From Bacteroidales bacterium (GTDB taxonomy: Bacteria; Bacteroidota; Bacteroidia; Bacteroidales; WCHB1-69), in assembly GCA_017616775.1 (NCBI GenBank), contig JAFZXM010000052.1, positions 77,282 through 141,281 on the forward strand: 64,000 bases of DNA, in the 5' to 3' direction. Each line of letters begins with the position of its first letter. Position 1 is the stretch's first letter. The notes beneath the pieces are model-generated. The model was not told the DNA's origin. It did no database searches and saw only the letters and a program-made list of their open reading frames with translations. Below, piece after piece: positions 15,490 to 34,651 of this stretch. The position numbers and the translations under genes are program-made.

Positions 15490-15515
15490 AGAATATCCGC
15501 TTTTTATTTCTGTTG

Positions 15516-15660: not shown

Positions 15661-15683
15661 CAAAATAAATCAAATTCTTTGTC

Positions 15684-16145: not shown

Positions 16146-16149
16146 GTGC

Positions 16150-16201: not shown

Positions 16202-16248
16202 GGTATAAAATTGCGGAGAAAAAGGGTTGATAGGGCAAATTAAATCAT

Positions 16249-17256: not shown

Positions 17257-17407
17257 TATATTTGTTTTTACGTTTTTTTTGTTTCTATTCCTTCTTTCCT
17301 GCCTTCGAACTTCTTATTACATGCTGCTTTATTACTTCTATAAGCGGAGAAAAATGATTGTCGGGGCAAGTGTAATCTTATCTATTGATACAGTTTATCA
17401 CAATATG

Positions 17408-18337: not shown

Positions 18338-21300
18338 CTTATAGTCAGTAAAGTTTTAACAATGGTATTACTTTTCTCGTCTTTGCTGAGAGAGTAGGTG
18401 TATTTGTATGCCAACGCATTATAGGTCGTCGGAGATGAGTTGATTAGGAAAATGTTACGTTTGCTCGCGAAATCAAGAATTCCTTCCACGTTCTTGGGAT
18501 GCAATTTACCAATCTCATCCATCATACAATGGAGTTTGAAGTCGCCGAACTTACGGGATATTTTGGATTTGAATACATTGATGAGCATAATATTCACCAT
18601 TGCCTTCACCAAAATATCAGTGCCGTCAGAGCCTACATTTGAGAGTTTCTCTACCCAACTGGTGTCGTTATCGTTCTCCTTCACCTTAAACTCCAGTTTG
18701 AAGGTGTCTGCCAAAGTGATATTCTCTCGCTTTTGCTCAGCATCCATCATATCTATGAGTGTCATCAACAAATTTACGGCTTGTTCATTAGTGCGATTCA
18801 AGTCTTTTTCTGTCGTGAAGAGGTTCAGGTTTCCGATATCATATCCGTGTTCATCATCAAAGTGCTTGATGTTTAACAGTTGCTGCATCAGCCTGTCGTT
18901 GCTCTCCACGGCACGTAGTTCTATCTCCTTGATAACTCCGACAAAATTGTTCTCTCTGAAGTCACGATTAATGTCAAGAATTGTCTTTTCGATGTCAGAT
19001 TTATGCTGGCTTAGATCACTAACATCCTTTGCAATCCGTTTAATGATGGTAGCATACTGACGACTGGTACGAACACGATACTGCTCAATCTTGTTGTTGC
19101 TTATAAATTCATTAAGTTCTGCGGCAAAATCCGTATAGTCCGCATCAGTGTTGAATTCTGTACGGAAATGGAAGGTGTTTTGTGCTGAGAAATTGCCCTT
19201 GAATCGGACGACTGCCTGTTTGAAATCCTCAAATTTTTGTTGCTGGGTGCTAATTCGGTCACGAAGTTCTTCCAGAATGTCAGCAAGCGGTTTAACAGTT
19301 TCTATGTCCTTTGCTGAAAGCAACTCTGGCGGACAAGTGGGGTTGCCCATAAAAGCATGAACCTTGCTGATGGCATCATTCAGCTTCTTTTGTTCGTCTT
19401 GCAGTTTGCGTAATTCAGTTGAAAGCACACCGATTTTCTCGTCATATTGCTGCTTTCGTTTTTGGAATTTATCTTGTAGTTCATCTATCTTTTGGCGAAT
19501 GAGTTTACGTTCATCCTTTTTCTTCTGTTCCAGATTGAAATACTCGCGTGTGTCGTTCTGCCATGAAATAAAGTTGGGACGATGTTCTTCTATGTATTTC
19601 AGTTCATCAGTTACTTTTTGTAGTTGTTGGCGGATGATAGCCAATTGATTGACATCTACGCCAAGTCCTTTTAGTTCAGCATCCATCTGTGCCTGCAATT
19701 CACCTTTTTGTTGTGCAACATCTTGTTCTTTACTTTTCAGCTCAGCATTAATATCCGATTTTTGTTGGTCACATGTATCCTTTAACTCTTTCTTCTGTTT
19801 TTCAAAAGATTTACGATTGTTCTCCAACTCTTTGTCTCGCTGGTCTGTAAAGAGTTTTCCCTGATTGCTAATGGCCTCGATTTCTTTATCTGTCTCTCCA
19901 ATCCTCTTTTGAAGCTTCTCGAGTTCCTCATTACGCCATTTCTTCAAACTTTCCATAGAATCAAATTGCTTCTTCTGAAGCAGTTCTATTCGACGAGGTA
20001 TTTGATTGTATTCTGCATCGACAGTCATCTTCTCCATGCGGAGTTGTTTTAGGCTCGCACCCGGCTTCCGCTCCAACCCTGCAATGTCGGCTTCCAACTG
20101 CTGTTTCCTGAGAGTATTTTTTTTGTTCAGTTCGTCAATTTTCCGTTCCATCGAAACTTTCTGAGCTTTCAGTTCATCAGGTGTCTTGATGATCTTCTCA
20201 ATGTTGTCGGTCTCAATCTTAACACCATAAATGCTGTTGGATGGACCAACAAACTGAGGATTCAATGAAGTATTATAGAGTACGGCATCTTCATCAAGCA
20301 CACGTCCAATATTCTCTTCCCAGCCATTCACATTCTCGCCCAACCATTCTATGAGAGAGCCCTTTTGGCGACTGAGCATATCTGTAACCTTTTCTATTTC
20401 GGTATTGATTTGCTTTATTTCATTCTCAATGGCTGCGACATCTTTCTCACATGCCACTTCCAATTCTTTACGCTGCATACCAACTTCATTGACAATATGG
20501 TCAATCTCCTGCTGCTTGCTAGAAGACTCCTGAAATAGCTTCAACTTTTTGTCATTCAACTCCTTCAACTTCCGCTCTTGTTCATCCATCTCATCTTGGT
20601 AAGGATTTGACTGCTTCACCCTCTGCTGCTGAAGTTTAAGGTCACTCTTTGTCTGACGAGCATCGTCTAATTGGGTCTGATTTTCTTTTAGCTTCTGATC
20701 ATATTGTCCACGAACAACTTCTGTTAGTTCTGTCATTTCTGTTTGCAGACGATTTTGCGCCTGCAAAAGTTGGCTATCCAATTCGTTGATACGTTGTTGG
20801 CATTGTAACTTGTATGCCTGTAGTTGATTCTCAACATCCTGTATTAATGTGTCATATTTAGACTTGACACTCTGGTTCTTGTCCGTCAGCGTATCTTCCT
20901 GATGCAACAGAGTTTGCTGTTGTATTTTAAGTTCACCTTCTCTACCAATACGCTCTGCAATTCTTTCTATTCCGATTTCTGCATAGTGCTGACGCTTATC
21001 TTTGACCTTCTTCAAGAAGTCATCTATGATAGCTTCATTACCCTTCAATCCGTCACGCTCTTTTGTAAACTTGTCGTTTTCTTCTTCCAATAGTCTATTC
21101 TGTCGGGATAAATCCTGACTACAGTCTGTTTCTTGCTCTGCTAACTGTGGCAAAAGGTTTGTATCTCGTTCCAATGCGTAATTCAACTGACCACAAAGTT
21201 CTGAGATTAGTTTACGGACATACTCATAATCAGTGTATTTCTCAATAACAGCTTCCGCATCAGTCTTTACTTTTACTTTGCCGTTCTTCTCTACCTTGTA

Positions 21301-21993
21301 CCATTTCCAAATATCTTCATACTGCTGACGGAAATTCTTTACCTCTTCACGGTAACGATTCAGGTCAATGTCGTCGCTCGCGAAGTCCATTGAGTCAATG
21401 ATAGTGTCTTTGATTACGCGAGACTCCAAGCTTTGGTTCAGGAAGATATTCTGAATAGTCAATGGCACCTGGCGGTATTTTGTACTCTCCATCAATGAGA
21501 AACGGCGAAATTCTTTTGCCACCTGTTGACTGTTGCCATAGATAATATCACGAAACTCCTCATAGCCACGAATGATATTGCTTTTGAACACGCGAGTGCC
21601 TATCTGCTCGCTAATGCGTCCCCATTCATATCGTACACTTCTGTCTTCCTCGACAAAGAACTTTTTGTCGTACGCACAGTCAACAATACGGAAGGCTGTA
21701 CGCCCATGTGAGAGGAAGGTCATCACAAAAAACTTGCCAGTCTCACGGCATACTTCGTAAATGATGTAAGAGTTCTGGTGAGGCAGATAGAACTCATCGT
21801 AACTCTTCTGTCCAGCTTGAGTCTTAATGCCAAGTTTGTTCTTATCGACATTATAGAAGAATAAAATTGAACGGAGCAGAGTTGATTTACCAACGCCCTG
21901 CGTTCCAATAAAATGCACATTGCCATCAAGTTTTATCTCTGCGTATGGAACGTGTGCACTATTGATGAATATGATTTTATTGAGGTATCTCAT
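18334..21993 (-). CDS. jetC: SMC/JetC-like ATPase with long coiled coil
   Basis: 1219 aa. Walker A GTQGVGKST (aa 30-38), about 700 aa of E/K/Q/L-rich coiled-coil-like sequence, C-terminal Walker B-like LHCMMDE. Confidence 0.7.
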   Translation of the reverse strand: MRYLNKIIFINSAHVPYAEIKLDGNVHFIGTQGVGKSTLLRSILFFYNVDKNKLGIKTQAGQKSYDEFYLPHQNSYIIYEVCRETGKFFVMTFLSHGRTAFRIVDCAYDKKFFVEEDRSVRYEWGRISEQIGTRVFKSNIIRGYEEFRDIIYGNSQQVAKEFRRFSLMESTKYRQVPLTIQNIFLNQSLESRVIKDTIIDSMDFASDDIDLNRYREEVKNFRQQYEDIWKWYKVEKNGKVKVKTDAEAVIEKYTDYEYVRKLISELCGQLNYALERDTNLLPQLAEQETDCSQDLSRQNRLLEEENDKFTKERDGLKGNEAIIDDFLKKVKDKRQHYAEIGIERIAERIGREGELKIQQQTLLHQEDTLTDKNQSVKSKYDTLIQDVENQLQAYKLQCQQRINELDSQLLQAQNRLQTEMTELTEVVRGQYDQKLKENQTQLDDARQTKSDLKLQQQRVKQSNPYQDEMDEQERKLKELNDKKLKLFQESSSKQQEIDHIVNEVGMQRKELEVACEKDVAAIENEIKQINTEIEKVTDMLSRQKGSLIEWLGENVNGWEENIGRVLDEDAVLYNTSLNPQFVGPSNSIYGVKIETDNIEKIIKTPDELKAQKVSMERKIDELNKKNTLRKQQLEADIAGLERKPGASLKQLRMEKMTVDAEYNQIPRRIELLQKKQFDSMESLKKWRNEELEKLQKRIGETDKEIEAISNQGKLFTDQRDKELENNRKSFEKQKKELKDTCDQQKSDINAELKSKEQDVAQQKGELQAQMDAELKGLGVDVNQLAIIRQQLQKVTDELKYIEEHRPNFISWQNDTREYFNLEQKKKDERKLIRQKIDELQDKFQKRKQQYDEKIGVLSTELRKLQDEQKKLNDAISKVHAFMGNPTCPPELLSAKDIETVKPLADILEELRDRISTQQQKFEDFKQAVVRFKGNFSAQNTFHFRTEFNTDADYTDFAAELNEFISNNKIEQYRVRTSRQYATIIKRIAKDVSDLSQHKSDIEKTILDINRDFRENNFVGVIKEIELRAVESNDRLMQQLLNIKHFDDEHGYDIGNLNLFTTEKDLNRTNEQAVNLLMTLIDMMDAEQKRENITLADTFKLEFKVKENDNDTSWVEKLSNVGSDGTDILVKAMVNIMLINVFKSKISRKFGDFKLHCMMDEIGKLHPKNVEGILDFASKRNIFLINSSPTTYNALAYKYTYSLSKDEKSNTIVKTLLTIR

Positions 21994-22528
21994 CTTTCAC
22001 GTCTTCGTCTATGTTAATACAAAGTATAATCTGCTCGATGTAATGAAAAGCATTGGTAACCTGATACGTGCTGTCAACCTCATTCACCATCTCCGCAAAC
22101 CCCATATTTTCTAACGCATCTGCCAACGCCTCCAGCTTTTGGCGATTCGACGGTTTGTCTGGAAACATCTGGGACAGTTTCTCTTTTAAACCTGGTATTG
22201 TGGAAAGCTTCACTTCCATCTGAACCAAACTAAACTGAGTTCCTGCATCAAAAGCCGTGTCGTATGTCTTCAGGAAGTCAAGATAGTCAATCCAAGAAAA
22301 CAACGATTGCAACTTGTTTTCTGTTGTCACCTTCGCTTCCTTGCGGCTGAAGTAGTAGAATCCGTCGCCACTACATAGTTGGAAGTCTATCTGACTGAAA
22401 TAGTCTTCATACTCCTGTTGGTTCTCTTCTATATCATTATAAATGGCACGCGTATCCGCATCAATGCTGTTACTCGATATAAATTGTCCCCGACTGAGGC
22501 GTTGGAATATTTCGCTTGTATATTTCAT
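21977..22528 (-). CDS. small acidic subunit in the JetB/MukE (KITE) position
   Basis: 183 aa, acidic. Overlaps neighbours by 17 nt downstream and by ATGA upstream. Assignment rests on size and position only. Confidence 0.4.
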   Translation of the reverse strand: MKYTSEIFQRLSRGQFISSNSIDADTRAIYNDIEENQQEYEDYFSQIDFQLCSGDGFYYFSRKEAKVTTENKLQSLFSWIDYLDFLKTYDTAFDAGTQFSLVQMEVKLSTIPGLKEKLSQMFPDKPSNRQKLEALADALENMGFAEMVNEVDSTYQVTNAFHYIEQIILCINIDEDVKDEIPQ

Positions 22529-23718
22529 AGTGGGTATATAATAGGATATTCTATGTTGTTCATTGTCTTCATCTCGTCTGTATAGTGCAATTGGTCTGGA
22601 TATTGTGATGCCATTTGTAGAAAGAGCACCAGACGCAATTCTTTGTCAAGCAAGTCAGTAAACGAATAGTTCCATACGTAGTAGAACAAATCGCGACTTT
22701 GAGCCAAGAAACCATTCAGCAATTCTTGATGGTTGAAAGCTCGAGCCGTTTCTGTTTGTTCCTCTAGGTAGTTGGAATCTATCCTCTCGGCCAGTCTCGA
22801 CTTGATGTTGGCTTTCTTTGACAGACGCCGTCTGATGTTGTCAAGAATATCAAGCGCAGTGTCCTCATTACGAAGGAAATCAAGAGAGACACGTGTGATG
22901 TACTTTGGCTGACGTTCCATCCAGACATCGTTTGTTTGTGTAACGATTTCCTTAATATTGGTTGTTTGCTCAATCATGTACTGATCGTGCAAATATTTCA
23001 ACTGGCGAACACGTTTCACTAAACGACTTTGGTATTCAATACGGTTTAAATAATCAATAATTTGGGCTGATACAGCAATAAGGCCGTGTGCCGAATCTTT
23101 CAAACTGTCACGTACTTCGCTTACGGTTTGTTTAAGACTATAATTCGCTGCACTCGCAAAGAAGATATGTTGTTCGTCTATAACACGTTCAGTCTGCCTT
23201 ATTAGTTCTGCTATCAGTTGCCCTTTTTCATCAAAATCTTTAAGACGAAGTTCCTTAATCTTGAAATTAGGTTCCTGCTTATAGGTGTCATCAACATTCC
23301 TTTTCAAATCCATCACATTTCTGCGAGTGGTATTCTCAATGCTCTTGAATGTGTGACGTATTTCTCTGAGAAATCCTTCTCTGCGAATATTGTTCTCAGC
23401 CGCCAGATAAGAATCAATACCAAGTTTCAGTTTATCAATATATGTCTTGACAGAAGAAATATTGATATCTTCGTTTACGGCCAGAACTTCCTCAAAGAAT
23501 CGTTGATATGCATCGTCCAGTTCCAATGCTTCCCCAGATTGCACAATCACTCCGAAAGTTATCAAATGCTTTAGTTTGTTCTCGTCTCCCTCCAATGTTT
23601 CGAGAGCATCATCATACTTTACGGCAACTGTCTTGCGTTTCATAAACATATCGTTCAGCAGTTTTGTGCCCTGCTGAAGTCCACGAATCAGTTCTTTTAT
23701 TGAATGATATGTCGCCAT
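22525..23718 (-). CDS. helical subunit in the JetA/MukF (kleisin) position
   Basis: 397 aa and first gene of the coupled operon. Assignment rests on size, position and composition only. Confidence 0.4.
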   Translation of the reverse strand: MATYHSIKELIRGLQQGTKLLNDMFMKRKTVAVKYDDALETLEGDENKLKHLITFGVIVQSGEALELDDAYQRFFEEVLAVNEDINISSVKTYIDKLKLGIDSYLAAENNIRREGFLREIRHTFKSIENTTRRNVMDLKRNVDDTYKQEPNFKIKELRLKDFDEKGQLIAELIRQTERVIDEQHIFFASAANYSLKQTVSEVRDSLKDSAHGLIAVSAQIIDYLNRIEYQSRLVKRVRQLKYLHDQYMIEQTTNIKEIVTQTNDVWMERQPKYITRVSLDFLRNEDTALDILDNIRRRLSKKANIKSRLAERIDSNYLEEQTETARAFNHQELLNGFLAQSRDLFYYVWNYSFTDLLDKELRLVLFLQMASQYPDQLHYTDEMKTMNNIEYPIIYPL

Positions 23719-23883
23719 GTTTAATTTATTTAGTACTTATACGTCGCCGTGGTGTTGCTTAAAATTCCTGAAAGTGCGGAAATCGGAAGTTTGCTATTCT
23801 AAGAAAGTGATATGTCTTTTCTTTATTATTCCATTTAAATTCAATAATTTTTATTCTATTAGAAAAATCATGGTATTTATAAT

Positions 23884-24147
23884 TTGCAAAAATAATAAAA
23901 TTATCCTACATTTCTATCGTTTTTGCAAATTATTTTTTTAGATGCAGAATGAATATGTGTATAAAAAGTTATCGGTGCATTTGGCTTGTTCTGATTATTC
24001 AGATGTTTATGAGATTTTTGCTTATTTTGTTTGTCTTGGTTCATAAGATGTTTTATTTTGCATAAGATACTAAAACCCATTGAAATATCAATGGATTAAG
24101 GCAATATTTTTTTAACAAAAAAGATGTGAAAGAATAAAAAATGCAGG
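23884..24147 (-). repeat. island intergenic repeat, copy A (upstream of the SMC operon)
   Basis: About 95% identical by eye to copy B over about 225 bp. Contains inverted repeat TTGCAAAAA/TTTTTGCAA (23884-23928), -7 box TATTTTTG (23887-23894, minus), a degenerate second box (TATCTTATG), hairpin CCATTGA-aata-TCAATGG (24077-24094), and ends at ATGCAGG (24141-24147). Confidence 0.85.
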
Positions 24148-24185
24148 AAGAGGATATAAAGTTTGTATTTACTTAATTCCAAGTG

Positions 24186-25265
24186 CTATTCTTGGTTTAG
24201 TTTTGTCTCAATCTCTTCAATGGTAGGAATAGTGCCTTCCACTTTTGCGGGATAGAATTTTTCCAACTCATACTCAGATATGCCAATAGGCTGGCTGCTT
24301 GACTCCAAAGCATATTGAGCCTGTGTGTTGTCTTTGCTTCGGCAAATGAGCAGTCCTATGGTGGGGTTGTCCTTGCCTTCTTCACGCAGTTGATGGTTGA
24401 CAGCGACCACATATGAACCAATCTGTCCTATGTCAGCAGGAGTAAACTTGCCGATTTTTACTTCAATGACGACATAACAGCGGAGACGCAAATTATAGAA
24501 TAGCAGGTCGATGAAGTTTTCGGTATGCCCAATCTGTAGTCGGTACTCTCTGCCTACGTATGCAAATCCGGTACCCAATTCAACCAAGAAGTCGGTGATG
24601 TTTTTGAGCAGTGCCATTTTCAACTCTGCCTCGTTATGCTGTTTGGCAACACCGGCAAATGCAAAGTTGTAGGGGTCTTTGGTCAGTTCTTGCGCCAAGT
24701 CGCTTGAGGTGTTGGGTATGGTGGTGGCAAAGTTGGTAATAGACTTCCCGGAACGTTCATACATTCCTATATCAATCCAGTTAAGCAAAAGTGCGCGGCT
24801 CCAGCCGTTTTCTATGGTTTGACCTACATAGAACAACGCCTTGTTCACATCGCCTTTCACCTTGTCGAGGATAAGTTTATGATGGCCCCAAGGTACCATG
24901 AATATAGGCGACTGGTTTTGCTTCGGCAGGTCGGGCAATAATTTGCCCCCAGCTTGGGGGCAAAATTCAACCGCCTCGGAATAAAGGAGGTAGAACCGAC
25001 GGCAATATCTTAAATTGGTTGACGAGAGGCCTTCTGCAGTGGGCATCGCTTTTTTCAAATCTTTACTGAGTTGGTTAATGACACTTTCTCCCCAGCGGTC
25101 TTCCACATGCATTTCTACGATGTCACGCCCAAGTAGGAAGTTATAGATCAATTGCTCGGTGTTGACTTTAACTGCGGCTCTGACTTGGCACAGCCGATAA
25201 CGGTCAATCAAGGTTTCCACCCACTGCTGGTATTCTTTATCCATGATGGTTATTGCCTTACTCAT
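24186..25265 (-). CDS. DUF1016/YhcG-family PD-(D/E)XK nuclease
   Basis: 359 aa. N-terminal YQQWVETLIDRYRLCQVRAAVKVN region and C-terminal FIDLLFYNLRLRCYVVIEVKIGKF (D...E-x-K core), typical of YhcG-like proteins. Confidence 0.75.
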   Translation of the reverse strand: MSKAITIMDKEYQQWVETLIDRYRLCQVRAAVKVNTEQLIYNFLLGRDIVEMHVEDRWGESVINQLSKDLKKAMPTAEGLSSTNLRYCRRFYLLYSEAVEFCPQAGGKLLPDLPKQNQSPIFMVPWGHHKLILDKVKGDVNKALFYVGQTIENGWSRALLLNWIDIGMYERSGKSITNFATTIPNTSSDLAQELTKDPYNFAFAGVAKQHNEAELKMALLKNITDFLVELGTGFAYVGREYRLQIGHTENFIDLLFYNLRLRCYVVIEVKIGKFTPADIGQIGSYVVAVNHQLREEGKDNPTIGLLICRSKDNTQAQYALESSSQPIGISEYELEKFYPAKVEGTIPTIEEIETKLNQE

Positions 25266-25416
25266 AATCTCTGTTTCTTTGTGTTAATTACTCAATCCCA
25301 TGCCAATGCCCAAAATGCTTTCTTACGCATCCATTGCGATTCTTTCTCTCTTCGTATAAGGGCTTTCGTCACACTTTGGATTGAAATCCGATTTTCCATA
25401 ACGTTCAAATTTGTGG

Positions 25417-25424
25417 CAAAAATA
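25417..25424 (-). promoter_or_regulatory. -7 box (TATTTTTG, minus) inside repeat B, proximal
   Basis: The forward-strand sequence CAAAAATA is the reverse complement of TATTTTTG. It lies about 150 nt upstream of ATG 25265 and forms the left arm of the inverted repeat. Confidence 0.4.
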
Positions 25425-25591
25425 GTAAAATTATCCTGCATTTCTATCATTTTTTGCCAATTATTTTTTTAGATGCAGAATGAATATATGTATAAAAAGT
25501 TATCGGTGCGTTTGGCTTGTTCTGATTATTCAGATGTTTATGAGATTTTTGCTTATTTTGTTTGTCTTGGTTCATAAGATGTTTTATTTTG

Positions 25592-25599
25592 CAAAGATA
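25592..25599 (-). promoter_or_regulatory. -7 box (TATCTTTG, minus) inside repeat B, distal
   Basis: The forward-strand sequence CAAAGATA is the reverse complement of TATCTTTG. It lies immediately downstream (minus sense) of the 7-bp-stem hairpin. The equivalent box is intact in copies C and D and mutated in A. Confidence 0.5.
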
Positions 25600-25663
25600 C
25601 TAAAACCCATTGAAATATCAATGGATTAAGGTAATATTTTTTTTCAACAAAGCGGGTGGGGAG

Positions 25664-25726
25664 AAAAAATGCAGGGAGGGGGCGGTGGGTGGTCGCTCCG
25701 ATATGTTCGATAAAGGGTGGTATTAA
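25664..25726 (-). repeat. C-rich 3' cassette module, copy after Fic-1
   Basis: Minus strand reads TACCACCCTTTATCGAACATATCGGAGCGACCACCCACCGCCCCCTCCCTGCATTTTTT directly after the stop codon. Related copies lie at 27113-27170 and 27360-27405. Confidence 0.7.
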
Positions 25727-27013
25727 TTATTCCTCTTGCTTTTTAATATATCCACGAGTTACCTTGTTGATGGCAATCTCTGTCAAATAACCTTGTTGCA
25801 CCAAATCGGAGAGGTCTTTCCTTGCCGTCATGGAAGAAACAGAGAACTGCTCCTGTACATCTTTTACGGTTAAAATAGTGTCTGGTTCTTCTGTCAATCT
25901 TTGCAATACCAATGCCTGCCGCTGGTTGATGTTTCCTGTCATCATAAAGACGGCGGCAGCTTTTTTCTCCCGTTGCTTCCGCTGGATATAGTCGCGGAGT
26001 TGCTGGAAAGAAATTTCCAACGCTCTCAAATTGTATGCCACAAAATATCCCATGTCGTTGCCGTCATTTTCTGTATAGCGGAACGATTTCTCATAACTGA
26101 TTTTTGATTTCGCAATTACCCTTGATATGGACATGTATTCCATGAGTTTGTAGTTCTCTTTCAGCATATACCAATAGAAAAGAGCACGGGCCGTCCGACC
26201 ATTGCCATCCGCAAAGGGGTGCATATAAGCCACCATAAAATGAATGATGATGCCTTTGATAATGGGATGAATAAAGGTACGTGGGTTATCATTATTGAAA
26301 AAGTCACATAAAGTTGTTACAAATTCCGGAATCTCCTCAAAGGCAGGCGGAGTATGAACAATATCCCCTTCAATCATATTGGCTACAACCACGTTGTTGT
26401 TTGTCCTGAAACAACCGGCGTCTTCAGGATTGTCCAATGTCTTTTCTGTCATCAGTCTGTGAATATACAGCAACCCTTCCTCCGTCAAGGGGACATTCTT
26501 ATGTTCTACAATATATTGGATAGTCGTATAGTTGTTTACAATCATCTGCTGTGCCTTGTTTTGAGGTGTTTTTTTTTTCCTCAGCATTTCTTTAGCAACA
26601 ATGCGGGTGGTGGAAGCACCCTCCATTTTGCTGGAATAGATAGCCTCTTCCATCAAGGAACTTGACAGATAATATTTTTTTTCGGAACTTTGTGAATTGT
26701 TACCGGCTTCCCAGAAACTTCCGAACTTCATATCAAAGTCATGGCAAAGACGTTGCATTTTGTTGGTGACAAATAGTTTAATTCCATATTTGTTCCAAAC
26801 ATTCAGTCTGTCTTGCTGACGAGAGGCTTTAACGTATGTCCACAATATCTTAGGACTGACGCCTTTGGGAAGATGATTCTTGTATTTAACCTTATCCCAA
26901 TATTCATAATCATCGTTTATTTGATTAATAATCGGATAAATGCGTTCATCTACACTACCCATGATGTACTTCAAATAAGCGTCATCATTTATTTTTGGCG
27001 GATATTCTATCAT
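25727..27013 (-). CDS. Fic-family protein, class II (N-terminal inhibitory helix) with C-terminal winged-helix domain
   Basis: 428 aa. Fic core HPFADGNGRTARAL, upstream inhibitory-type motif SSKMEG ((S/T)xxxE(G/N)), C-terminal ..QALVLQRLTEEPDTILTVKDVQEQFSVSSMTARKDLSDLVQQGYL (wHTH-like). Confidence 0.85.
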   Translation of the reverse strand: MIEYPPKINDDAYLKYIMGSVDERIYPIINQINDDYEYWDKVKYKNHLPKGVSPKILWTYVKASRQQDRLNVWNKYGIKLFVTNKMQRLCHDFDMKFGSFWEAGNNSQSSEKKYYLSSSLMEEAIYSSKMEGASTTRIVAKEMLRKKKTPQNKAQQMIVNNYTTIQYIVEHKNVPLTEEGLLYIHRLMTEKTLDNPEDAGCFRTNNNVVVANMIEGDIVHTPPAFEEIPEFVTTLCDFFNNDNPRTFIHPIIKGIIIHFMVAYMHPFADGNGRTARALFYWYMLKENYKLMEYMSISRVIAKSKISYEKSFRYTENDGNDMGYFVAYNLRALEISFQQLRDYIQRKQREKKAAAVFMMTGNINQRQALVLQRLTEEPDTILTVKDVQEQFSVSSMTARKDLSDLVQQGYLTEIAINKVTRGYIKKQEE

Positions 27014-27039
27014 TGTTTTATCTTTTATTTTTCAAACGG

Positions 27040-27047
27040 CAAAGGTA
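27040..27047 (-). promoter_or_regulatory. -7 box (TACCTTTG, minus) for Fic-1
   Basis: The forward-strand sequence CAAAGGTA is the reverse complement of TACCTTTG. It lies 27 nt upstream of ATG 27013. Confidence 0.55.
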
Positions 27048-27060
27048 CAATAAAAAAATT

Positions 27061-27107
27061 AAATTCTTGCAAATTCTTGCAAATTTTTGCAAAAGTTGCA
27101 AGAATTT
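27061..27107. promoter_or_regulatory. operator-like array: four TTGCAA hexamers at about 10-bp phasing, including a perfect 12-bp inverted repeat
   Basis: TTGCAA at 27067, 27077, 27087 and 27096. AAATTCTTGCAA (27071-27082) and TTGCAAGAATTT (27096-27107) are exact reverse complements. The array sits over the -35-equivalent region of the Fic-1 promoter. Confidence 0.5.
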
Positions 27108-27112
27108 TTCTC

Positions 27113-27170
27113 AAAAAAAGCAGGGTGAGGGCGGAGGTGCCGCTTTGAAATGTTCGCTTAAAGGGTGGTA
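27113..27170 (-). repeat. C-rich 3' cassette module, orphan copy (no gene upstream of it)
   Basis: AAAAAAAGCAGGGTGAGGGCGGAGGTGCCGCTTTGAAATGTTCGCTTAAAGGGTGGTA aligns with 25664-25722. Confidence 0.6.
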
Positions 27171-27190
27171 ATGTCCATGCTGAGAAAGAA

Positions 27191-27372
27191 AAGTTATCGG
27201 TTCGTTTGCTTCTCGTTAATTAGTTAGCATTTTCTGGACTTTTTGTTTATTTTGATTAGTTTGGTTCAAAAGATGGTTTTATTTTGCAAAAATACTAAAA
27301 ACCATTAAAATATCAATGGATTAAGGCAATATTTTTTTACAAAAAAGATGTGAAAGAATAAAAAATGCAGGA
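27191..27372 (-). repeat. island intergenic repeat, copy C (diverged left part, conserved right part)
   Basis: Begins AAGTTATCGG as in A and B. -7 box at 27287-27294, hairpin with 1 mismatch at 27302-27319, ends at ATGCAGG 27365-27371. Lacks the inverted-repeat segment of A and B. Confidence 0.75.
27287..27294 (-). promoter_or_regulatory. -7 box (TATTTTTG, minus) inside repeat C
   Basis: The forward-strand sequence CAAAAATA is the reverse complement of TATTTTTG. It occupies the same position as the distal box of copy B. Confidence 0.4.
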
Positions 27373-27405
27373 GGGGGGGGAGGAATTCTCAGATATGTTC
27401 GCCTG
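27360..27405 (-). repeat. C-rich 3' cassette module, copy after Fic-2
   Basis: AAAAAATGCAGGAGGGGGGGGAGGAATTCTCAGATATGTTCGCC. It shares ATGCAGG, the G-run and GATATGTTCG with 25664-25710. Confidence 0.55.
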
Positions 27406-27427
27406 AATGTTTATCGTCTTTCACCGA

Positions 27428-28303
27428 TCAATCCTCTTGTTCATAATAGTATGAATAGTCGATGCCTTTCATAAAGATTGCACGGTCGTCAGTGCGGTCG
27501 GTAAGGGCACCGAGAAGCAGTTCCCGTATTTTAGTACTGTCCGTATGACTTGCTATCATGGCATCAAGGTATTCTTTCTTGTCAATTTTGCTCCAATCCA
27601 CACATTTCTTCAGCCGTTTTTTGAAAATGAGGTCAAGCCAGATACGCGTAGAGCGTCCGTTGCCTTCCATAAAGGGATGCGCCGCGTTCATCTCCACATA
27701 TTTGTCCACAATCTCATCAAACGTGGTTTCCGGCATCTTTTCAATTGTCCTGAGGTTTTGGGGCAGATATTCGGCCATGCAAAACAGGGTGTTGCCCTTG
27801 GCTATGGTCTTTGTGCGAATTTTTCCCGCGAAATCATACAAACCGCCAAAGAGATATGCGTGAATTTGTTGCAAGGCTTTCACCTTGCCCACATCCTTGT
27901 CAGCTACAAGTTTGCTTTCCCAAAGGGTATAAGCCTTCTTGCGGCTTTGTCCGTCAATGGTGTTCTCGCTGTATTTAAACCAGTCAAGAAAAGCCATAGC
28001 CTGGCTGTTGGGAATGGCTTTTGCCAATTGTTCCACACCTGCCAGACTGATGACATCGGTGTTGTACTTCTTTCCGTCTGCAGCCGTGAGTTTCAGTTGG
28101 GTAGTGGCACTAACCAACTCGTTTTGTTCTTTCTTCAGTTTGGCCTTGAGATACTTCCAGTAGTTACGGTTCTTCACATGGTTGTCCTGCTCATTGACGG
28201 CTCCTATAACATCAAGTACGGAAAACCACCATTGGTTGAGGTCCTCATCCCATACGGCACGCACTACATGATTTTTATAAAAACGAATGGATATCTTGCT
28301 CAT
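27428..28303 (-). CDS. Bro-N-like DNA-binding domain fused to a Fic domain (class III-like C-terminal helix)
   Basis: N-terminus IRFYKNHVVRAVWDEDLNQWWFSVLDVIGAV (Bro-N pattern). Fic core HPFMEGNGRSTRIW. C-terminus GIDYSYYYEQED is near the (S/T)xxxE(G/N) motif. Start could also be ATG 28324 or TTG 28354 (the track start). Confidence 0.8.
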   Translation of the reverse strand: MSKISIRFYKNHVVRAVWDEDLNQWWFSVLDVIGAVNEQDNHVKNRNYWKYLKAKLKKEQNELVSATTQLKLTAADGKKYNTDVISLAGVEQLAKAIPNSQAMAFLDWFKYSENTIDGQSRKKAYTLWESKLVADKDVGKVKALQQIHAYLFGGLYDFAGKIRTKTIAKGNTLFCMAEYLPQNLRTIEKMPETTFDEIVDKYVEMNAAHPFMEGNGRSTRIWLDLIFKKRLKKCVDWSKIDKKEYLDAMIASHTDSTKIRELLLGALTDRTDDRAIFMKGIDYSYYYEQED

Positions 28304-28410
28304 AATTTGTACCCGACTTTTCATTTTTTTACAATCCGTTCCCCAATTTCTCAAACTATTCTTTCAGCTTCTGCCAGCTATACTCCAAACGGACACCACT
28401 GAATTATAAA

Positions 28411-28465
28411 TGCAAAAATACTAAAAACCATTGAAATATCAATGGATTAAGGCAATATTTTTTTA
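28411..28465 (-). repeat. island intergenic repeat, copy D (promoter-proximal part only)
   Basis: TGCAAAAATACTAAAAACCATTGAAATATCAATGGATTAAGGCAATATTTTTTT matches the right part of A-C. Hairpin at 28428-28445. Confidence 0.8.
28413..28420 (-). promoter_or_regulatory. -7 box (TATTTTTG, minus) for Fic-2
   Basis: The forward-strand sequence CAAAAATA is the reverse complement of TATTTTTG. It lies inside repeat D, about 90-110 nt upstream of the candidate ATG starts. Confidence 0.5.
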
Positions 28466-28497
28466 ATAAAAAAGGCGTAACCTCATGGTTACGCCTT
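28466..28497 (-). terminator. rho-independent terminator of dnaK
   Basis: AAGGCGTAACC-tcat-GGTTACGCCTT followed on the minus strand by a T run. It directly abuts repeat D. Confidence 0.8.
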
Positions 28498-28619
28498 ATT
28501 ACTTATGGATAAATTGTTATTTATCCGGTTTATTTCGGTATTTGCTTTGCCAATTCCGCAATAAATCCTCACCTCGGCAGTGCTCAAACCTTTCGGTTTG
28601 GAATGCGCTCGGTTCGTCG

Positions 28620-30524
28620 TTATTTCACCTCTTCAAAGTCCACGTCGGTGACTTCTTGGTCTTTGCCGTTGTTGGTGTTGGAGGATTGTTGTTGCTGTTG
28701 GCCGGCATTGTTGCCTTGTTGGGCTTGTGCGTTGTACATTTCTTGGGATGCACTCTGCCAAATATTGTTCAATTCAGCCATAGCGGCATCGATAGCGGCC
28801 ATATTTTTGTTTTTGTGAGCTTCACGCAACTTTTCATTGGCGGCTTCTATTTGGCTCTTTTTGTCAGCGGGCAATTTGTCTCCGAACTCTTTCAACTGCT
28901 TGTCGGTTTGGAATATCATCGCATCGGCTTGGTTGAGCTTGTCTATTTCTTCTTTTACCTTTTTATCGTTTTCTGCGTTGGCGGCAGCTTCGGCTTTCAT
29001 CTTCTTGATTTCTTCTTCGCTCAAACCGGAAGATGCGGTAATGGTGATATGTTGTTCCTTGCCTGTTGCCTTGTCTTTAGCCGTTACGTTTAATATACCG
29101 TTGGAGTCGATATCAAACGATACTTCTATTTGAGGCACGCCACGCGGAGCAGGCATAATGCCGTCCAAGTCGAACCGTCCTACTTGTTTGTTGTCTTTTG
29201 CCATGGGACGTTCCCCTTGCAATACATTGATGGTTACCGAAGGCTGGTTGTCGGCAGCGGTGGAGAACACTTCCGTCTTCTTGGTAGGAATGGTGGTATT
29301 GGCGTCTATCAGTTTGGTCATCACGCCGCCGAGGGTTTCTATACCCAAAGAAAGCGGAGTTACATCCAACAAAAGCACGTCTTTTACTTCACCTGTCAGC
29401 ACACCGCCTTGTATAGCGGCACCCACTGCAACCACTTCATCAGGGTTAACGCCTTTGGAAGGTGTTTTGCCGAAGAAATCTTCCACCACTTTTTGTATGG
29501 CGGGGATACGGGTAGAGCCACCGACCAATATCACGGTGTTGATATCGGAAGCTTTCAAGCCGGCGTCGGCCAAGGCTTTACGGCAGGGTTCTATGGTGGC
29601 ATTGATCAAATGGTCGGCCAATTGTTCGAATTTGGTTCTTGTCAAAGTGGTTACCAAGTGTTTGGGCATACCGTCAACAGGCATGATGTAAGGCAGGTTG
29701 ATTTCGGTGGAAGCCGAAGAAGAAAGTTCTATTTTTGCTTTTTCTGCAGCTTCTTTCAAACGTTGGTGAGCCATGGCATCTTTACGAAGGTCTATGCCGT
29801 TTTCTTTCTGGAATTCTTCTGCCAGCCAGTCTATAATCACGTGGTCAAAGTCATCACCGCCGAGGTGGGTGTCACCGTTGGTGGATTTCACTTCAAACAC
29901 ACCGTCTCCCAATTCCAAAATGGAGATATCAAAAGTACCTCCGCCAAGGTCGAAAACAGCCACTTTGCTGTCGGAGGCCTTTTTGTCCAATCCGTATGCC
30001 AATGCGGCGGCAGTAGGTTCGTTGATAATACGTTTAACAGTCAAACCTGCAATTTCTCCGGCTTCTTTGGTAGCCTGACGTTGAGAGTCACTAAAATAGG
30101 CCGGTACGGTGATAACAGCTTCCGTCACTTCTTGTCCCAGATAGTCTTCTGCTGTCTTCTTCATTTTTTGCAACACTATTGCCGATATTTCTTGAGGAGT
30201 GTATAGTCTGTCACCTATTTTCACTCTCGGGGTGTTGTTGTCGCCTTTTACCACATCGTAGCTGACACGACCGACTTCTTTGGCTACTTGGTCAAAATTT
30301 TCACCCATAAAACGTTTGATGGAATAAATGGTTTTGGTAGGGTTGGTTACAGCCTGACGTTTGGCAGGATCGCCTATCTTTCTGTCACCATTATCCAAAA
30401 ACGCCACTATGGACGGAGTAGTTCTGTTTCCTTCACTGTTGGGTATTACTACCGGTTCGTTGCCTTCCATTACGGCAACGCATGAGTTGGTGGTTCCAAG
30501 GTCTATACCTATAATTTTTCCCAT
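28620..30524 (-). CDS. dnaK: molecular chaperone DnaK (Hsp70)
   Basis: 634 aa. [21 protein letters not shown] and [11 protein letters not shown] signatures. Q/N-rich C-terminal tail. Confidence 0.97.
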
Positions 30525-30780
30525 ATTTGTTTCCTTTCTATTTTTGCTTGTTTAATTTTGTGATTTCAATTTTTTTTGTCATTTCTTTTATTTCAATCAT
30601 TGTGCCAATTAGCATCTCCGGACAAGGCTTTTACAGCTTGTTTTAATTGCAAACACTTGAAAATAAGTGCAGTATGAAATATTTTTAATGTCGGACAAAA
30701 AAACGCGAAGCGAAAAAATGTCATTGTAGCGACCGGAATATACTGACAGAATGTCAGTGAAATGTCCGGAAGGGAGCGTT

Positions 30781-31821
30781 TTACCGGGTGATGATATGTA
30801 TGATTTTGCGGGAATATTCATCCACCCATTGTTTAAAGTGCAGGGGTGGGGAGTAGCTGAGTTTTTTTTCCAGAAATGCCGTTATGTTAAAATGCCGGCT
30901 ATGCCATCCTGCACCGCATTGCTGTGCTTCATGAGCGTTGCATTGTTGTTCAAAATTAGCGGGAACCATCCATACGGGTTTGTGCAGATACATGGCTTCG
31001 GCTATGGTTTCGAATCCGGCGGTGCTCATAAGGCCGTCGGCATGAGCCATATGTGCGGCAAAATTGCTGTTGTCAATAGGGTGGGTGTGTATATGAGGGT
31101 GTTTGCTTTCCGTCACGGTGTCGGAGAAGACGTGCAGGCTGACGGGGCAATTTTGTGATTCTAATTCTTGCAGATATCCGGCATTGAGCAGATAGCAGAG
31201 CAGGTAAGCCCGGTTGTCTTGTCGTGGGGGAGGTGGGGTAATATTCAAAAAAGGGGGGGCTGTGCAGAGATGTTTTTCGGGTATATCCGGCAAAGGTTTC
31301 AAAGACAGCCCTATGACAGTGTCCGCATGGGCACAGGTGATGCGGGTGAGCGTTTTGAGCATGAATTTGCGCAGGGCAAAGCGGGCGGGAAAGCTATATT
31401 GCGGATGTAAGAACATATATTGATGGGCAATACAGATTAAAGGCTTGCTGATATTGTGCCAACAATATGCCGGTCCGCACAGGGGCTCGTAAAAATTGAC
31501 AATTTTATCGGCAGAGGATTGCTGCAGTGTGCGGGCAATAAAGTTGATGGATTTAAAATAGCGGCCGCATACGGCCATGTTATAAACAATGCTGGCACAC
31601 AGGCGGGTGCGGGTGGGGGAGGTGATGAAATTGGGACTTGCGAACAAGGTGACCTCACAAGGAAAGGCCTCCTTTACATATTCCGGAATCTGCCTGAACG
31701 GGCTTACGCCTATGAGCACTTTTTCCAAAGCATGACCTTCCTGTTGCAGTTGCTTCCATAAGGTAATGGCTTGTGTAAAATGCCCTCTCCCTTCACCTTG
31801 TATGATAAACAGGAATGTCAT
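30781..31821 (-). CDS. GT-B fold glycosyltransferase (MurG/UDP-glycosyltransferase-like)
   Basis: 346 aa. N-terminal IQGEGRGHFTQAI glycine-rich loop and C-terminal ..STAGFETIAEAMYLHKP... Start overlaps the folP stop by 1 nt (TAATG). Confidence 0.55.
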   Translation of the reverse strand: MTFLFIIQGEGRGHFTQAITLWKQLQQEGHALEKVLIGVSPFRQIPEYVKEAFPCEVTLFASPNFITSPTRTRLCASIVYNMAVCGRYFKSINFIARTLQQSSADKIVNFYEPLCGPAYCWHNISKPLICIAHQYMFLHPQYSFPARFALRKFMLKTLTRITCAHADTVIGLSLKPLPDIPEKHLCTAPPFLNITPPPPRQDNRAYLLCYLLNAGYLQELESQNCPVSLHVFSDTVTESKHPHIHTHPIDNSNFAAHMAHADGLMSTAGFETIAEAMYLHKPVWMVPANFEQQCNAHEAQQCGAGWHSRHFNITAFLEKKLSYSPPLHFKQWVDEYSRKIIHIITR

Positions 31822-32645
31822 TATACTATTTGGGATACTATTTTGACGGCATCAAGTGCCGGTTTGACATCATGCACGCGGAGTATGTCGGCACCTTGCA
31901 TTAGCGCAATGGTGTCGGCGGCAACGGTGGCATATAGCGTTTCTTCAGGAGTGGTGTTCAAGAGCTTGTATAACATGCTCTTGCGGGAAATCCCCGCCAA
32001 CACCGGACATTTTAATTGCTTGAATACCGATAAATGTTTCAGCAGGGTGTAATTCTGTTGTACCGTTTTGCCGAAACCGAAACCGGGATCTATAATCACA
32101 TCGTTGACACCCATGGACCTGAGGGTGTGTAATTTTTCACTTAAAAAACAGAGTATATCTCCAATCACATCGTTATAGTCGGTATGTTGTTGCATCTCCT
32201 GCGGCAAACCTGTGGTGTGGGTGAGTATATATGGCACATGAAGTTGTGCCACGGTGGAGAACATATCGGGGTCAAAAGTGCCTCCGGAGATATCATTGAT
32301 AATACCTACCCCTTGTTCCACAGCCGTTTGAGCAACCTTTGAACGGTAGGTGTCTATCGAAAACAAAGCTTTTGACATGTAAGGACGGAGGATGTTTAAA
32401 GTATATTGCAATGCATTTAGTTCTTCATCTTCACTAATGGGAGTAGCCATAGGATTGGTAGCCATACAACCGATATCAATGATATCGGCTCCTTCCCGGA
32501 GTAATTTTTCCGTTTGGGTTTTTATGGCTGCTTCACAGGTATAGCGGCCTCCGTCGTAAAATGAATGCCGGGTTACATTAAGTATGCCCATAATGCACGG
32601 ACGGGTAAATTGTACGATATTCCCTTTATGGTTGATAGTCATCAT
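31821..32645 (-). CDS. folP: dihydropteroate synthase
   Basis: GILNVTRHSFYDGG, DIIDIGCMATNP, IDPGFGFGK motifs. Start moved to ATG 32645 because the track TTG start overlaps the -7 box. Confidence 0.85.
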   Translation of the reverse strand: MMTINHKGNIVQFTRPCIMGILNVTRHSFYDGGRYTCEAAIKTQTEKLLREGADIIDIGCMATNPMATPISEDEELNALQYTLNILRPYMSKALFSIDTYRSKVAQTAVEQGVGIINDISGGTFDPDMFSTVAQLHVPYILTHTTGLPQEMQQHTDYNDVIGDILCFLSEKLHTLRSMGVNDVIIDPGFGFGKTVQQNYTLLKHLSVFKQLKCPVLAGISRKSMLYKLLNTTPEETLYATVAADTIALMQGADILRVHDVKPALDAVKIVSQIV

Positions 32646-32663
32646 AACGCTATGAATAAAATG

Positions 32664-32671
32664 CAAAGGTA
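32664..32671 (-). promoter_or_regulatory. -7 box (TACCTTTG, minus) for folP
   Basis: The forward-strand sequence CAAAGGTA is the reverse complement of TACCTTTG. It lies 19 nt upstream of ATG 32645. Confidence 0.5.
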
Positions 32672-32766
32672 TTATTTTTTTATTGATTGTTTAAAGAATG
32701 CGGTTTCTTTGGAAATAAAAAAAATTTTTTTTAAATTCACTGCTTGTATGCCGGGCACCGATGAGG

Positions 32767-32797
32767 TTTTCAGGGCGGGCGGAGCCCGCCCTGAAAA
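32767..32797. terminator. strong 14-bp-stem GC-rich hairpin flanked by T/A runs (terminator-like) in a divergent intergenic region
   Basis: TTTTCAGGGCGGGC-gga-GCCCGCCCTGAAAA. Confidence 0.45.
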
Positions 32798-32848
32798 TGA
32801 ATAGACAAACCGATATCGGGTTCAGGCAGGAAAGTGATAAAAAAATGC

Positions 32849-32856
32849 TATCTTTG
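32849..32856 (+). promoter_or_regulatory. -7 box (TATCTTTG)
   Basis: TAnnTTTG about 105 nt upstream of ATG 32962. Confidence 0.4.
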
Positions 32857-32961
32857 CAAGCAAGAAAATGATAATGTATTTTGTGGAGCCGGAATAGCTG
32901 AAACAGCGGAAACAAGTCCGGAACACAGGCACGGATTTTTTATTGAATTAAAATAAAAGGT

Positions 32962-33279
32962 ATGGAACCGGTCAAAAAAGAGGCGTATAATTATTACCTG
33001 AATAGCAATCTGAAATCGGATACCGATAACATGTCCGTGCCGGTGGCAAATACTACAGCGAATACCCGTACTCTGCAGGAAGAAACACCGGATGAAGCAC
33101 AGCACAAGCCACTCACCACGGGGCAAGTGGTGGTGGGCGGCATGATAGGAGTGTGCCTGTTTATGTTGCTTTTGGTGCTGTTTACCAAATTGATAGGTGG
33201 TTTAAAAGAGAAATTTCAACGAAAAAATACCAAAAACGATAATGATGATAAAAACGATAGAGGCGAAAGCAGCCTATGA
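32962..33279 (+). CDS. hypothetical small single-pass membrane protein
   Basis: 105 aa with one clear TM helix (VVVGGMIGVCLFMLLLVLFTKLIGG). Overlaps the next ORF by 38 nt. No recognisable family. Confidence 0.3.
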   Translation: MEPVKKEAYNYYLNSNLKSDTDNMSVPVANTTANTRTLQEETPDEAQHKPLTTGQVVVGGMIGVCLFMLLLVLFTKLIGGLKEKFQRKNTKNDNDDKNDRGESSL

Positions 33280-33610
33280 AGCCATACAGCAGGGTGCGGT
33301 ATTGGTGGATGTAAGAGAAAAGGAAGAAACAGAAGAAAAATGGGTGGACCTGCCGGGAGTGGTAAAATTACCTTATTCCGGTTTGGAGGGGAATATAGCT
33401 GTGCTCCCGTCGGATAAACCGCTTATTGTATGTTGTGCGGTAGGCATAGTAAGCGAAATGGCGGTGCCTGTGTTGCACAATCACGGATATACAAACGTAC
33501 AAGTGTTGGAGAACGGTTTGGTATCGTGGCAGGAGGCACATCTGCCCATCAAATCATCGCAGGATATGCATTGCCATTGTAATTGCGGTAAGGCCCATCA
33601 TGAAAAATAA
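33242..33610 (+). CDS. rhodanese-like domain protein
   Basis: 122 aa. Active-site loop context LIVCCAVGIVS and a His/Cys-rich tail HCHCNCGKAHHEK. Confidence 0.65.
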   Translation: MMIKTIEAKAAYEAIQQGAVLVDVREKEETEEKWVDLPGVVKLPYSGLEGNIAVLPSDKPLIVCCAVGIVSEMAVPVLHNHGYTNVQVLENGLVSWQEAHLPIKSSQDMHCHCNCGKAHHEK

Positions 33611-33616
33611 TTAATT

Positions 33617-34615: not shown

Positions 34616-34651
34616 GAACAATTTTTTGAACAAGCTTGCGTTATCATTGAT

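Follow-up and report, generated by a model that had tools for sequence, protein, structure and literature searches.

How unrelated anti-phage genes come to be preceded by copies of one intergenic sequence is the question raised by a stretch of 64 kb (the window) on contig JAFZXM010000052.1 of an uncultured Bacteroidales bacterium. The window contains a defence island of 13 kb, in which four direct copies of one intergenic module (A to D) lie 5' of four different units. The favoured explanation, held with modest confidence, is that a locally duplicated promoter or boundary module keeps former passenger genes of type I restriction–modification (R–M) operons expressed as separate units, and that the copies arose and were homogenised by ordinary homologous recombination. 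The assembly and expression of defence islands are largely unexplained, and the locus gives a concrete, testable picture of both.

Four copies of an intergenic module and its predicted promoters

The genes were identified with Pfam, which was run on essentially all open reading frames (ORFs) of at least 150 aa in the window, and with PADLOC. The module copies were found on the coding (minus) strand by self-blastn and repeat finding. Copies A, B, C, and D preceded a four-gene Wadjet/Mks-like condensin operon, the YhcG nuclease gene, Fic-1, and Fic-2, respectively (Table 1). A preliminary description of the locus had listed the same four copies and the same neighbours, and its coordinates were right within a few bases.

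Copies A and B (25416–25681) were 91.8% identical over 269 nt with gaps in blastn (E = 8e-86) and 95.4% identical over 237 nt in megablast, the latter value agreeing with the 95% or so of the preliminary description. Copies A and C (27189–27377) were 83.9% identical over 192 nt in blastn (E = 4e-44). Copies B and C were 78% identical over 218 nt, and their blastn alignment extended to 25709 and 27401, respectively. Copy D had only the core of 62–67 bp in common with the others (88–95% identity, E values of 1e-13 to 1e-16), also as described. The extents of the copies were unequal, namely 67, 213, 268, and 311 bp. A 35-nt core with at most two mismatches occurred four times in the window and not once in 100 shuffles. 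The palindrome CCATTGA-N4-TCAATGG was likewise found at four sites in the 64 kb, all of them in the copies. A profile search with nhmmer over the window and about 17 kb past its ends detected no copy besides these four.

On the coding strand, a full module opened with an hsdS-like stub and a C-rich stretch that ended in CCTGCATTTTTT. These were followed, in order, by a T/A-tract, the palindrome, a first box P1 (TAnnTTTGCA), and an A/C-rich leader of 100–175 nt. A second box, P2 (TATTTTTGC), was located at the gene-proximal end of copies A and B only. The A-tract, the palindrome, and the –7 box named in the preliminary description were recovered by pattern search. The C-rich stretch of copy C included a C8 homopolymer (27373–27380), and its counterparts in copy B and the orphan tail were interrupted C-runs.

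The primary sigma factor of the Bacteroidota, sigma-ABfr, has the –7 consensus TAnnTTTG (PMC7366714). The housekeeping genes of the window had an A-tract and TAyCTTTGCA at 16–56 nt before the ATG, and this extended consensus was matched by P1 of copies B, C, and D and by P2 of copies A and B. No other TAnnTTTG box was present within about 115–180 nt of the start codons of Fic-2, YhcG, and the Jet-like (Wadjet/Mks-like) operon. The palindrome overlapped the –33 position, and its left arm contained ATTG (three of the four bases of TTTG) 19 nt upstream of the –7 box. The window's own promoters showed no clear –33 element either.

In copy A, P1 was broken by a 1-nt insertion (TATCTTATGC). The preliminary description had the box intact in B, C, and D and broken in A, which was correct, but the break was private to one strain and not a feature of the element. 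Strain 2 (L018) and the TONG22-1 strain (L108) lacked the insertion and carried the intact allele TATCTTTGC, so every P1 box was intact until recently.

The conserved 60-bp core is accordingly described here as a predicted sigma-ABfr-type promoter, in which an A-tract is followed by the 18-bp palindrome, lying across the –33 region, and then by TAnnTTTGCA. This assignment is part of the favoured explanation, and the modest confidence given above applies to the two jointly. P1 and P2 would both fire. The central observation of the preliminary description, that one promoter-bearing module is reused in the same orientation 5' of unrelated defence units, was borne out, and the promoter core was the most conserved part.

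Two genes of the island differed in their upstream regions. Fic-1 had a predicted promoter region of its own between its ATG and the orphan tail, with the box TACCTTTG. In this region, inverted and direct TTGCAAGAATT repeats (27061–27107, minus strand) were distinct from the module palindrome and are possibly an autoregulatory operator for the C-terminal helix-turn-helix (HTH) of Fic-1. The 150-nt spacer before RhuM lacked a TAnnTTTG box, and for this reason RhuM is probably co-transcribed with the Wadjet/Mks-like operon above.

Other functions of the leader were considered and rejected. A K/N/Q-rich ORF of 42, 47, or 59 aa in the leaders of copies A and B was rejected as coding, because copy C had TTG in place of ATG and a stop after 17 codons, and because an indel moved the C-terminus in A relative to that in B. 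A riboswitch or small RNA was rejected because the leaders of A, B, and C were unstructured (z = –0.4, –1.0, and +0.7). An Rfam scan of 15000–35000 (E ≤ 1) gave a chance match to MicX alone, outside the repeats.

Table 1. Features of the defence island and of comparable arrays (positions in the window unless a locus is given)
Feature	Position	Strand	Remarks
Defence island	15.5–28.6 kb	–	One strand; between dnaK and MBL-fold housekeeping gene
dnaK	28620–30524		Borders island
dnaK terminator	28472–28497	–	Canonical, GC-rich; upstream edge of island
Copy D	28411–28477	–	Minimal module with T/A-tract, directly after dnaK terminator; 5' of Fic-2
Copy D, palindrome	28428–28445	–	
Copy D, P1	28413–28420	–	Intact
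hsdM 3' remnant	~28304–28375	–	5' of Fic-2
Fic-2	27428–28303	–	BRO-N and NmFic-type Fic domain; PADLOC PDC-S04
hsdS 5' remnant	27392–27427	–	Directly after Fic-2 stop (GTGAAAGACGATAAACATTCAGGCGAACATATC); aligned to hsdS starts of L021–L023
Copy C	27189–27401	–	5' of Fic-1
Copy C, C-rich stretch and CCTGCATTTTTT	27360–27371	–	Followed by A-tract
Copy C, palindrome	27302–27319	–	One mismatch (G·U-type)
Copy C, P1	27287–27294	–	Intact; A/C-rich leader of ~100 nt follows
Orphan tail	27105–27178	–	hsdS 5' remnant, then C-rich stretch and CCTGCTTTTTTT (27113–27124); no gene in front
Fic-1 promoter region	27014–27107	–	Box TACCTTTG at 27040–27047, 26 nt before ATG
Fic-1	25727–27013	–	SoFic-like Fic; C-terminal winged HTH
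Copy B	25416–25681	–	5' of YhcG; position is of part aligned with A; homology to C reaches 25709, to orphan tail 25726 (full copy 25416–25726)
Copy B, hsdS-5'-like tail	25696–25722	–	
Copy B, C-rich stretch and CCTGCATTTTTT	25664–25675	–	
Copy B, palindrome	25607–25624	–	
Copy B, P1	25592–25599	–	Intact; leader of ~170 nt follows
Copy B, P2	25417–25424	–	
hsdM 3' remnant	25266–25381	–	5' of YhcG; last ~38 codons, decayed
YhcG	24186–25265	–	YhcG/DUF1016 PD-(D/E)xK nuclease; PADLOC PDC-S02
Copy A	23886–24153	–	5' of Wadjet/Mks-like operon
Copy A, CCTGCATTTTTT	24136–24147	–	
Copy A, palindrome	24077–24094	–	
Copy A, P1	24060–24069	–	Broken (TATCTTATGC); leader follows
Copy A, P2	23887–23894	–	
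Wadjet/Mks-like condensin operon	17408–23718	–	Four genes; MksE, DUF3584/JetC-like, DUF7281/JetD-like
RhuM family gene	16249–17256	–	PADLOC PDC-S05
Far-end debris	15653–16145	+	Intact-looking consensus promoter (15653); frameshifted hsdM 5' remnant (ATG 15684); VbhA-like Fic N-terminal fragment
MBL-fold housekeeping gene	14704–15489		Far border of island
Array	L082:3924–6107		RapZ, Fic-2, repeat, YhcG, repeat, KilA-N, repeat
Array	L065:1310–4040		FGGY kinase, repeat, polyvalent-protein kinase, repeat, two small genes, partial repeat, Fic-2, repeat
Array	L037:2884–4500		Hsp20, repeat, Fic-2, repeat, DUF2971
Array	L031:21–2047		Two repeat copies
Array	L078:1–1378		Two repeat copies

Remnants of restriction–modification operons and the origin of the copies

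The source of the cargo was indicated by the nearest homologues, which were found in metagenomic loci (designated by L numbers). The closest YhcG homologue (L016, 88% aa identity) directly follows hsdM, and its DNA homology to the window covers the whole YhcG gene, up to the stop, and a further 116 nt in front of the ATG. The 116 nt before YhcG are therefore the decayed 3' end of hsdM (alignment score of 87, compared with 17 ± 2 for shuffled sequences). The closest Fic-2 homologues (L021–L024, 94% aa identity) sit between hsdM and hsdS. In L016 and L021–L024 the hsdM-X-hsdS arrangement is intact. The hsdM remnant before Fic-2 contained an exact 14-mer, TTTGAGAAATTGGG (28342–28355), common to the hsdM ends of L022–L024, and the 36 nt after the Fic-2 stop aligned with the first hsdS codons with a score that none of 500 shuffles reached.

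Two further stubs flanked Fic-1. The tail of copy B, which follows Fic-1, and the orphan stub (27146–27178, including an ATG), which lies before the Fic-1 promoter, both resembled the hsdS 5' end of the L023 allele type. The orphan tail and the B tail thus formed a direct repeat of about 66 bp on both sides of the Fic-1 unit. All hsdS stubs broke at the same codon (about codon 13, after ATATCnGAG) and continued into the same C-rich stretch. Their inner parts differed as hsdS alleles do, with TATAAAC (L021/L022) or TACCAGC (L023), whereas the outer parts had derived states in common (CGAACATATC). The hsdM-side junctions differed from unit to unit. On the plus strand at the far end of the island, the hsdM 5' stub read MAKTKEIIEEPLEK / FGKAADKL. 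The plus-strand promoter in front of this stub points antisense into the island, toward RhuM and the Jet-like operon.

Judging by these remnants, the island is a graveyard of type I R–M operons in which the passenger genes survive. The hsdM 3' and hsdS 5' ends beside the cargo argue for an origin from type I R–M operons with duplication in situ, and not for capture of free cassettes. The PADLOC families PDC-S02, PDC-S04, and PDC-S05 found here are typically embedded in type I R–M operons, and a gammaproteobacterial R–M system island that embeds DarTG2 under RptR control is an example of 'guilt by embedding' (PMC12255303). The palindrome over the island promoter echoes the repressor control of such islands. 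The present locus differs in that the R–M genes are stubs and each formerly internal gene has a separate copy of the promoter module. Neither an RptR-like regulator gene nor TAGCTA sites were present at the island.

Two other sources of the module were rejected. Transport of the module together with its cargo did not fit the alignments with YhcG homologues of 80% and 88% identity and with 80 metagenomic loci carrying Fic-2 homologues, in which homology ended at or just past the coding sequence or in the hsd stubs and never entered the module. Descent from a native hsdM promoter was rejected because the module did not resemble the sequences that precede hsdM in L021–L024, and its likeness to the plus-strand promoter at 15653 was limited to the generic GTATCTTTGCAAAATAAA consensus.

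According to the favoured explanation, the accessory genes (Fic-2, Fic-1, YhcG, and probably RhuM) once occupied the middle position (X) of type I R–M operons of the order hsdM-X-hsdS and would have shared a transcript with hsdM. The R–M genes would then have decayed to stubs, and each surviving unit, like the Wadjet/Mks-like operon, would now start from its own module copy and be transcribed independently of the others, probably under common regulation. The copies would have been made in situ by segmental duplication or by unequal, Campbell-type homologous recombination, and they may still swap sequence by gene conversion with no dedicated recombinase involved. The order and mechanism of the duplications are inferred.

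Gene conversion among the copies was suggested by the strains. Strains from at least four samples of the European Nucleotide Archive, at least 99.5% identical to one another, were compared. Over 7.7 kb, strain 2 showed seven differences from the window, six of them in module cores. Five differences of strain 2 lay within 25606–25645, and four of these turned copy B to the state of A, C, or D; copy D had two more changes to a sister-copy state. The copies were also mosaic, as A and C had one segment in common, B and C the tail, and A and B the leader. Since the strain differences clustered in the cores and mostly at sister-copy states, they point to gene conversion.

The same observations bear on a different proposal, that the defence units are homology-guided cassettes independent of any recombinase. 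Each unit would be bounded by hsdM 3' and hsdS 5' ends, the module array would be the landing pad, and RecA-type recombination would swap or add units through the short hsd stubs or through Campbell integration of circles between modules. The common break point of the hsdS stubs, where the conserved N-terminal part of hsdS ends, would be expected of such exchange, as would the allele-like inner parts with common derived outer parts, the direct repeats around the Fic-1 unit, and the gene conversion among modules. Independent R–M operons, otherwise intact, provided similar cases. In L024 (3879–3955, 5156–5236), the hsdS 5' end was duplicated around an embedded DUF1016 gene, and in L063 (270–340, 2183–2235, 2930–3000) and L058 (92–153, 1782–1843), duplicated hsdS 3' ends (...REKQYEYYRNKLLTFE*) flanked embedded genes. 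These cases are hints that embedded genes may be inserted or exchanged at conserved hsd segments. However, no strain compared had gained, lost, or reordered a unit, the stubs of 25–116 nt are short for efficient homologous recombination, and the hsdM-side junctions were unlike between units. One ancient junction, copied with the module, explains the common break point equally well. This proposal is considered unlikely. The broader idea that Bacteroidales build islands from recombinase-independent cassettes, with units stacked at a chromosomal site and each addition duplicating a locus-specific promoter module, is equally doubtful. If it held, such stacking would give promoter-punctuated arrays here and in L082, L065, L037, L031, and L078.

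An integron-like or rAID-like array had been proposed in the preliminary description, which had also stated, rightly, that the window has no recombinase gene and that the cargo is of the defence/toxin type and not immunity genes. An integron is made up of intI, attI, a single Pc promoter, and promoterless cassettes that end in a structurally conserved attC; among integrons are sedentary chromosomal ones with phage-defence cassettes. Like these arrays, the island strings together unrelated defence units of one gene each, and one sequence recurs between the units. It differs in that each unit has its own promoter copy and no cassette variation was seen among strains. No protein of the Phage_integrase type, to which the product of intI belongs, was encoded in the window (Pfam). 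By sequence reading, no GTTRRRY core of attC was matched at the boundaries, and the Rfam scan returned nothing relevant, although no dedicated attC search was made. The defining features of rAID-1 arrays are a conserved tyrosine recombinase of the XerD family, a skew in GC content, and orphan immunity genes of the type VI secretion system (Ross et al., bioRxiv 10.1101/471110). The one-strand arrangement, the unrelated small conflict genes, the repetitive intergenic sequences between them, and the bacterial order are alike. The island differs in its missing recombinase, normal GC content, phage-defence or toxin-type cargo with R–M stubs, and lineage-private repeat.

The repeat could still be acted on by a site-specific recombinase whose gene lies outside the regions searched, which were the window and about 17 kb of flank, and the palindrome was conserved in every copy. 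No integrase, transposase, or recombinase was found in the 64 kb (Pfam, ORFs of at least 150 aa, and gene tables) or in the flank gene tables, where the preliminary description had suggested that a linked tyrosine recombinase be sought. The GC content of the island coding parts was 0.38–0.47, compared with 0.42 for the window, with no skew. The core sites of tyrosine recombinases have overlap regions of 6–8 bp. The 4-bp spacer of the palindrome is shorter than this, and the repeat boundaries varied by copy. Gene order was identical in all assemblies of the organism (ERZ27256916, ERZ27297857, ERZ28653445, ERZ28633325, and two Logan runs); this lack of cassette-level variation is what the preliminary description had named as speaking against such an array, but the test is weak, because the strains differ by at most 0.5%. 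Several strain contigs ended inside the repeats.

The module was also sought outside this genome, as a dispersed or mobile element would be expected to occur there. It was absent from the GTDB species representatives (exact core; five chance matches to the palindrome only), the JGI metagenomes, and IMG/VR, from plasmids and phages (blastn), and from the 80 Fic-2 loci and a 77%-related species (nhmmer profile). The leader ORF matched only the same organism in a database of 5.8 billion proteins. In the sequences searched, the repeat is thus private to one poorly sampled lineage, and copies elsewhere, which the preliminary description had proposed to count, were seen in no other organism. With fixed gene order, unskewed GC content, a private repeat, and no recombinase, an integron-like or rAID-like array is very unlikely.

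A miniature inverted-repeat transposable element (MITE) with an outward promoter, inserted repeatedly upstream of genes, is more improbable still. Copy B had 9-bp terminal inverted repeats, CCTGCATTT ... AAATGCAGG (25667–25675 / 25435–25443), matched at eight of nine positions in copy A, but this was one among 30 inverted repeats of similar length in 5 kb, which is the chance level. The homology of A and B overran the right repeat by about 25 nt and the left by a few nt, copies C and D had no right end, target-site duplications were lacking, and neither the roughly 80 kb examined nor any database searched contained dispersed copies. Correia elements of Neisseria occur as hundreds of dispersed copies, in which TA duplications and defined inverted ends are present. 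The module is like them in that a short repeat supplies a promoter and a hairpin beside different genes, and unlike them in its four clustered copies, ragged ends, and lack of target duplications.

Several observations weigh against the favoured explanation of a locally duplicated promoter module. The distance from P1 to the start codon was about 110 to about 330 nt, compared with the 16–56 nt typical here, and the A-tract and –7 box were separated by the palindrome, which is atypical in this genome; the promoter activity is a prediction from sequence. Neither the A tail nor the spacer that precedes the Jet-like operon contained a significant hsd remnant. The break of all three hsdS stubs at the same codon could mean a preferred, possibly enzyme-mediated, recombination point, and the check for other copies or a trans-acting recombinase extended over about 80 kb of the genome. 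The copies differed by 5–22% and the strains by at most 0.5%, so the in-situ duplication would be old. No related species with the island was found, the lineage being poorly sampled, with the nearest MBL orthologue 77% identical.

The palindrome and comparable arrays at other loci

Two roles are considered for the palindrome: it may be an operator through which a repressor acts on all four promoters, or it may insulate the units from one another as a weak terminator. Folded as single-stranded DNA or RNA of the minus strand, it formed a hairpin of 7–10 bp, with –13 kcal/mol in copies A and B (z = –4.3 to –4.7) and –7 to –9 kcal/mol in copies C and D; z ranged from –3 to –4.7 over the copies. 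The plus-strand hairpin was much weaker (z = –0.8 to –1.8). A U-rich tract followed the hairpin, and copies C and D had U5 after the stem.

This strand asymmetry favours a role mainly as an intrinsic terminator or insulator of the upstream unit, in which case the module would be kept as a terminator–promoter boundary or mainly as a terminator. A simple scan listed the hairpin of copy D as terminator-like, and both variant copies, C and strain-2 B, kept G·U pairing on the minus strand only. However, two C-to-T changes are too few to establish an asymmetry (chance of about 1 in 4). Compared with the genuine dnaK terminator, which lies 30 nt upstream of copy D and makes a second terminator there redundant, the stem is short and rich in A and T. 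In copies A and B the U-tract was partly paired into the stem, and a terminator role leaves the conservation of the TAnnTTTGCA box unexplained. A mainly terminating function is considered unlikely.

Should the palindrome serve as an operator, a single switch would control four different defence systems, which would give a simple model of island co-regulation. The palindrome was absent from all 80 loci with Fic-2 homologues; for this reason no regulator is nominated, and Fic-2, with its BRO-N domain, was rejected as the palindrome-binding protein (no co-occurrence, 0/80).

Self-comparison of the 80 Fic-2 loci showed that at least five of them, also from Bacteroidales, have this architecture but are built around repeats of unrelated sequence (L082, L065, L037, L031, and L078; Table 1), so the pattern noticed in the preliminary description was a real one. 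The repeats were locus-specific, 46–157 bp long, and directly 5' of the next ORF, and each contained TAnnTTTG, which was degenerate (TATTCTTG) in the first copy of L082. The arrays adjoined housekeeping genes. Recurrence in several rumen-type Bacteroidales contigs suggests a recurrent evolutionary route and not a one-off. No description of arrays punctuated by promoter repeats was found in the literature searched.

Defence islands and repeated intergenic promoters are known kinds, and the locus is a variant of both. Current ideas are not overturned, and the element is private to one lineage. Under the favoured explanation, embedded passengers of type I R–M operons can outlive the R–M genes and then be kept expressed by copies of one local promoter module, and these copies would provide internal homology for gene conversion and, potentially, rearrangement.

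Neighbouring genes and strain variation

The rest of the 64 kb consisted of housekeeping genes, including ligA, an aminotransferase gene, folP, the genes of enolase and PGM, mfd, clpB, and pdxJ (Pfam). The gene of the metallo-beta-lactamase (MBL) fold at the far border abuts RlmL in the nearest sampled species (L012:1–2300), whereas RlmL lies 27 kb away in the window (42814–45273). The island is therefore at a synteny breakpoint, and the nearest species (77% MBL identity) was rejected as an orthologous reference locus because of the broken synteny.

The Mks/Wadjet-like operon is, by its domain matches, a divergent condensin-type defence operon. Its first gene (397 aa, 22525–23718, minus strand) had no match in Pfam, NCBIfam, or PADLOC, and its fourth gene matched DUF7281 and, weakly, JetD, with no other match. 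RhuM in one strain (L011:575–1639) was 354 aa long, compared with 335 aa in the window, owing to a duplication of about 78 bp and a short insertion (window ~16729–16806).

At the other end of the island, strain 2 (L007:11905–12140; window 28535–28641) had an 84-bp tandem duplication of the dnaK 3' end and 3' untranslated region, just upstream of copy D. Of its 14 differences over 2.9 kb, from the dnaK 3' region to the end of Fic-1, eight fell at the dnaK 3' end and 3' untranslated region. Beyond the end of the window, next to pdxJ (L104:1–8825, L105:1–4955), a polymorphic-toxin locus varied between strains. One strain encoded a protein of more than 2500 aa and a CDI_toxin_EC869-like/CdiI pair, and another strain had different genes. 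This pdxJ-side locus, unlike the defence island, thus showed strain variation at the level of whole units.

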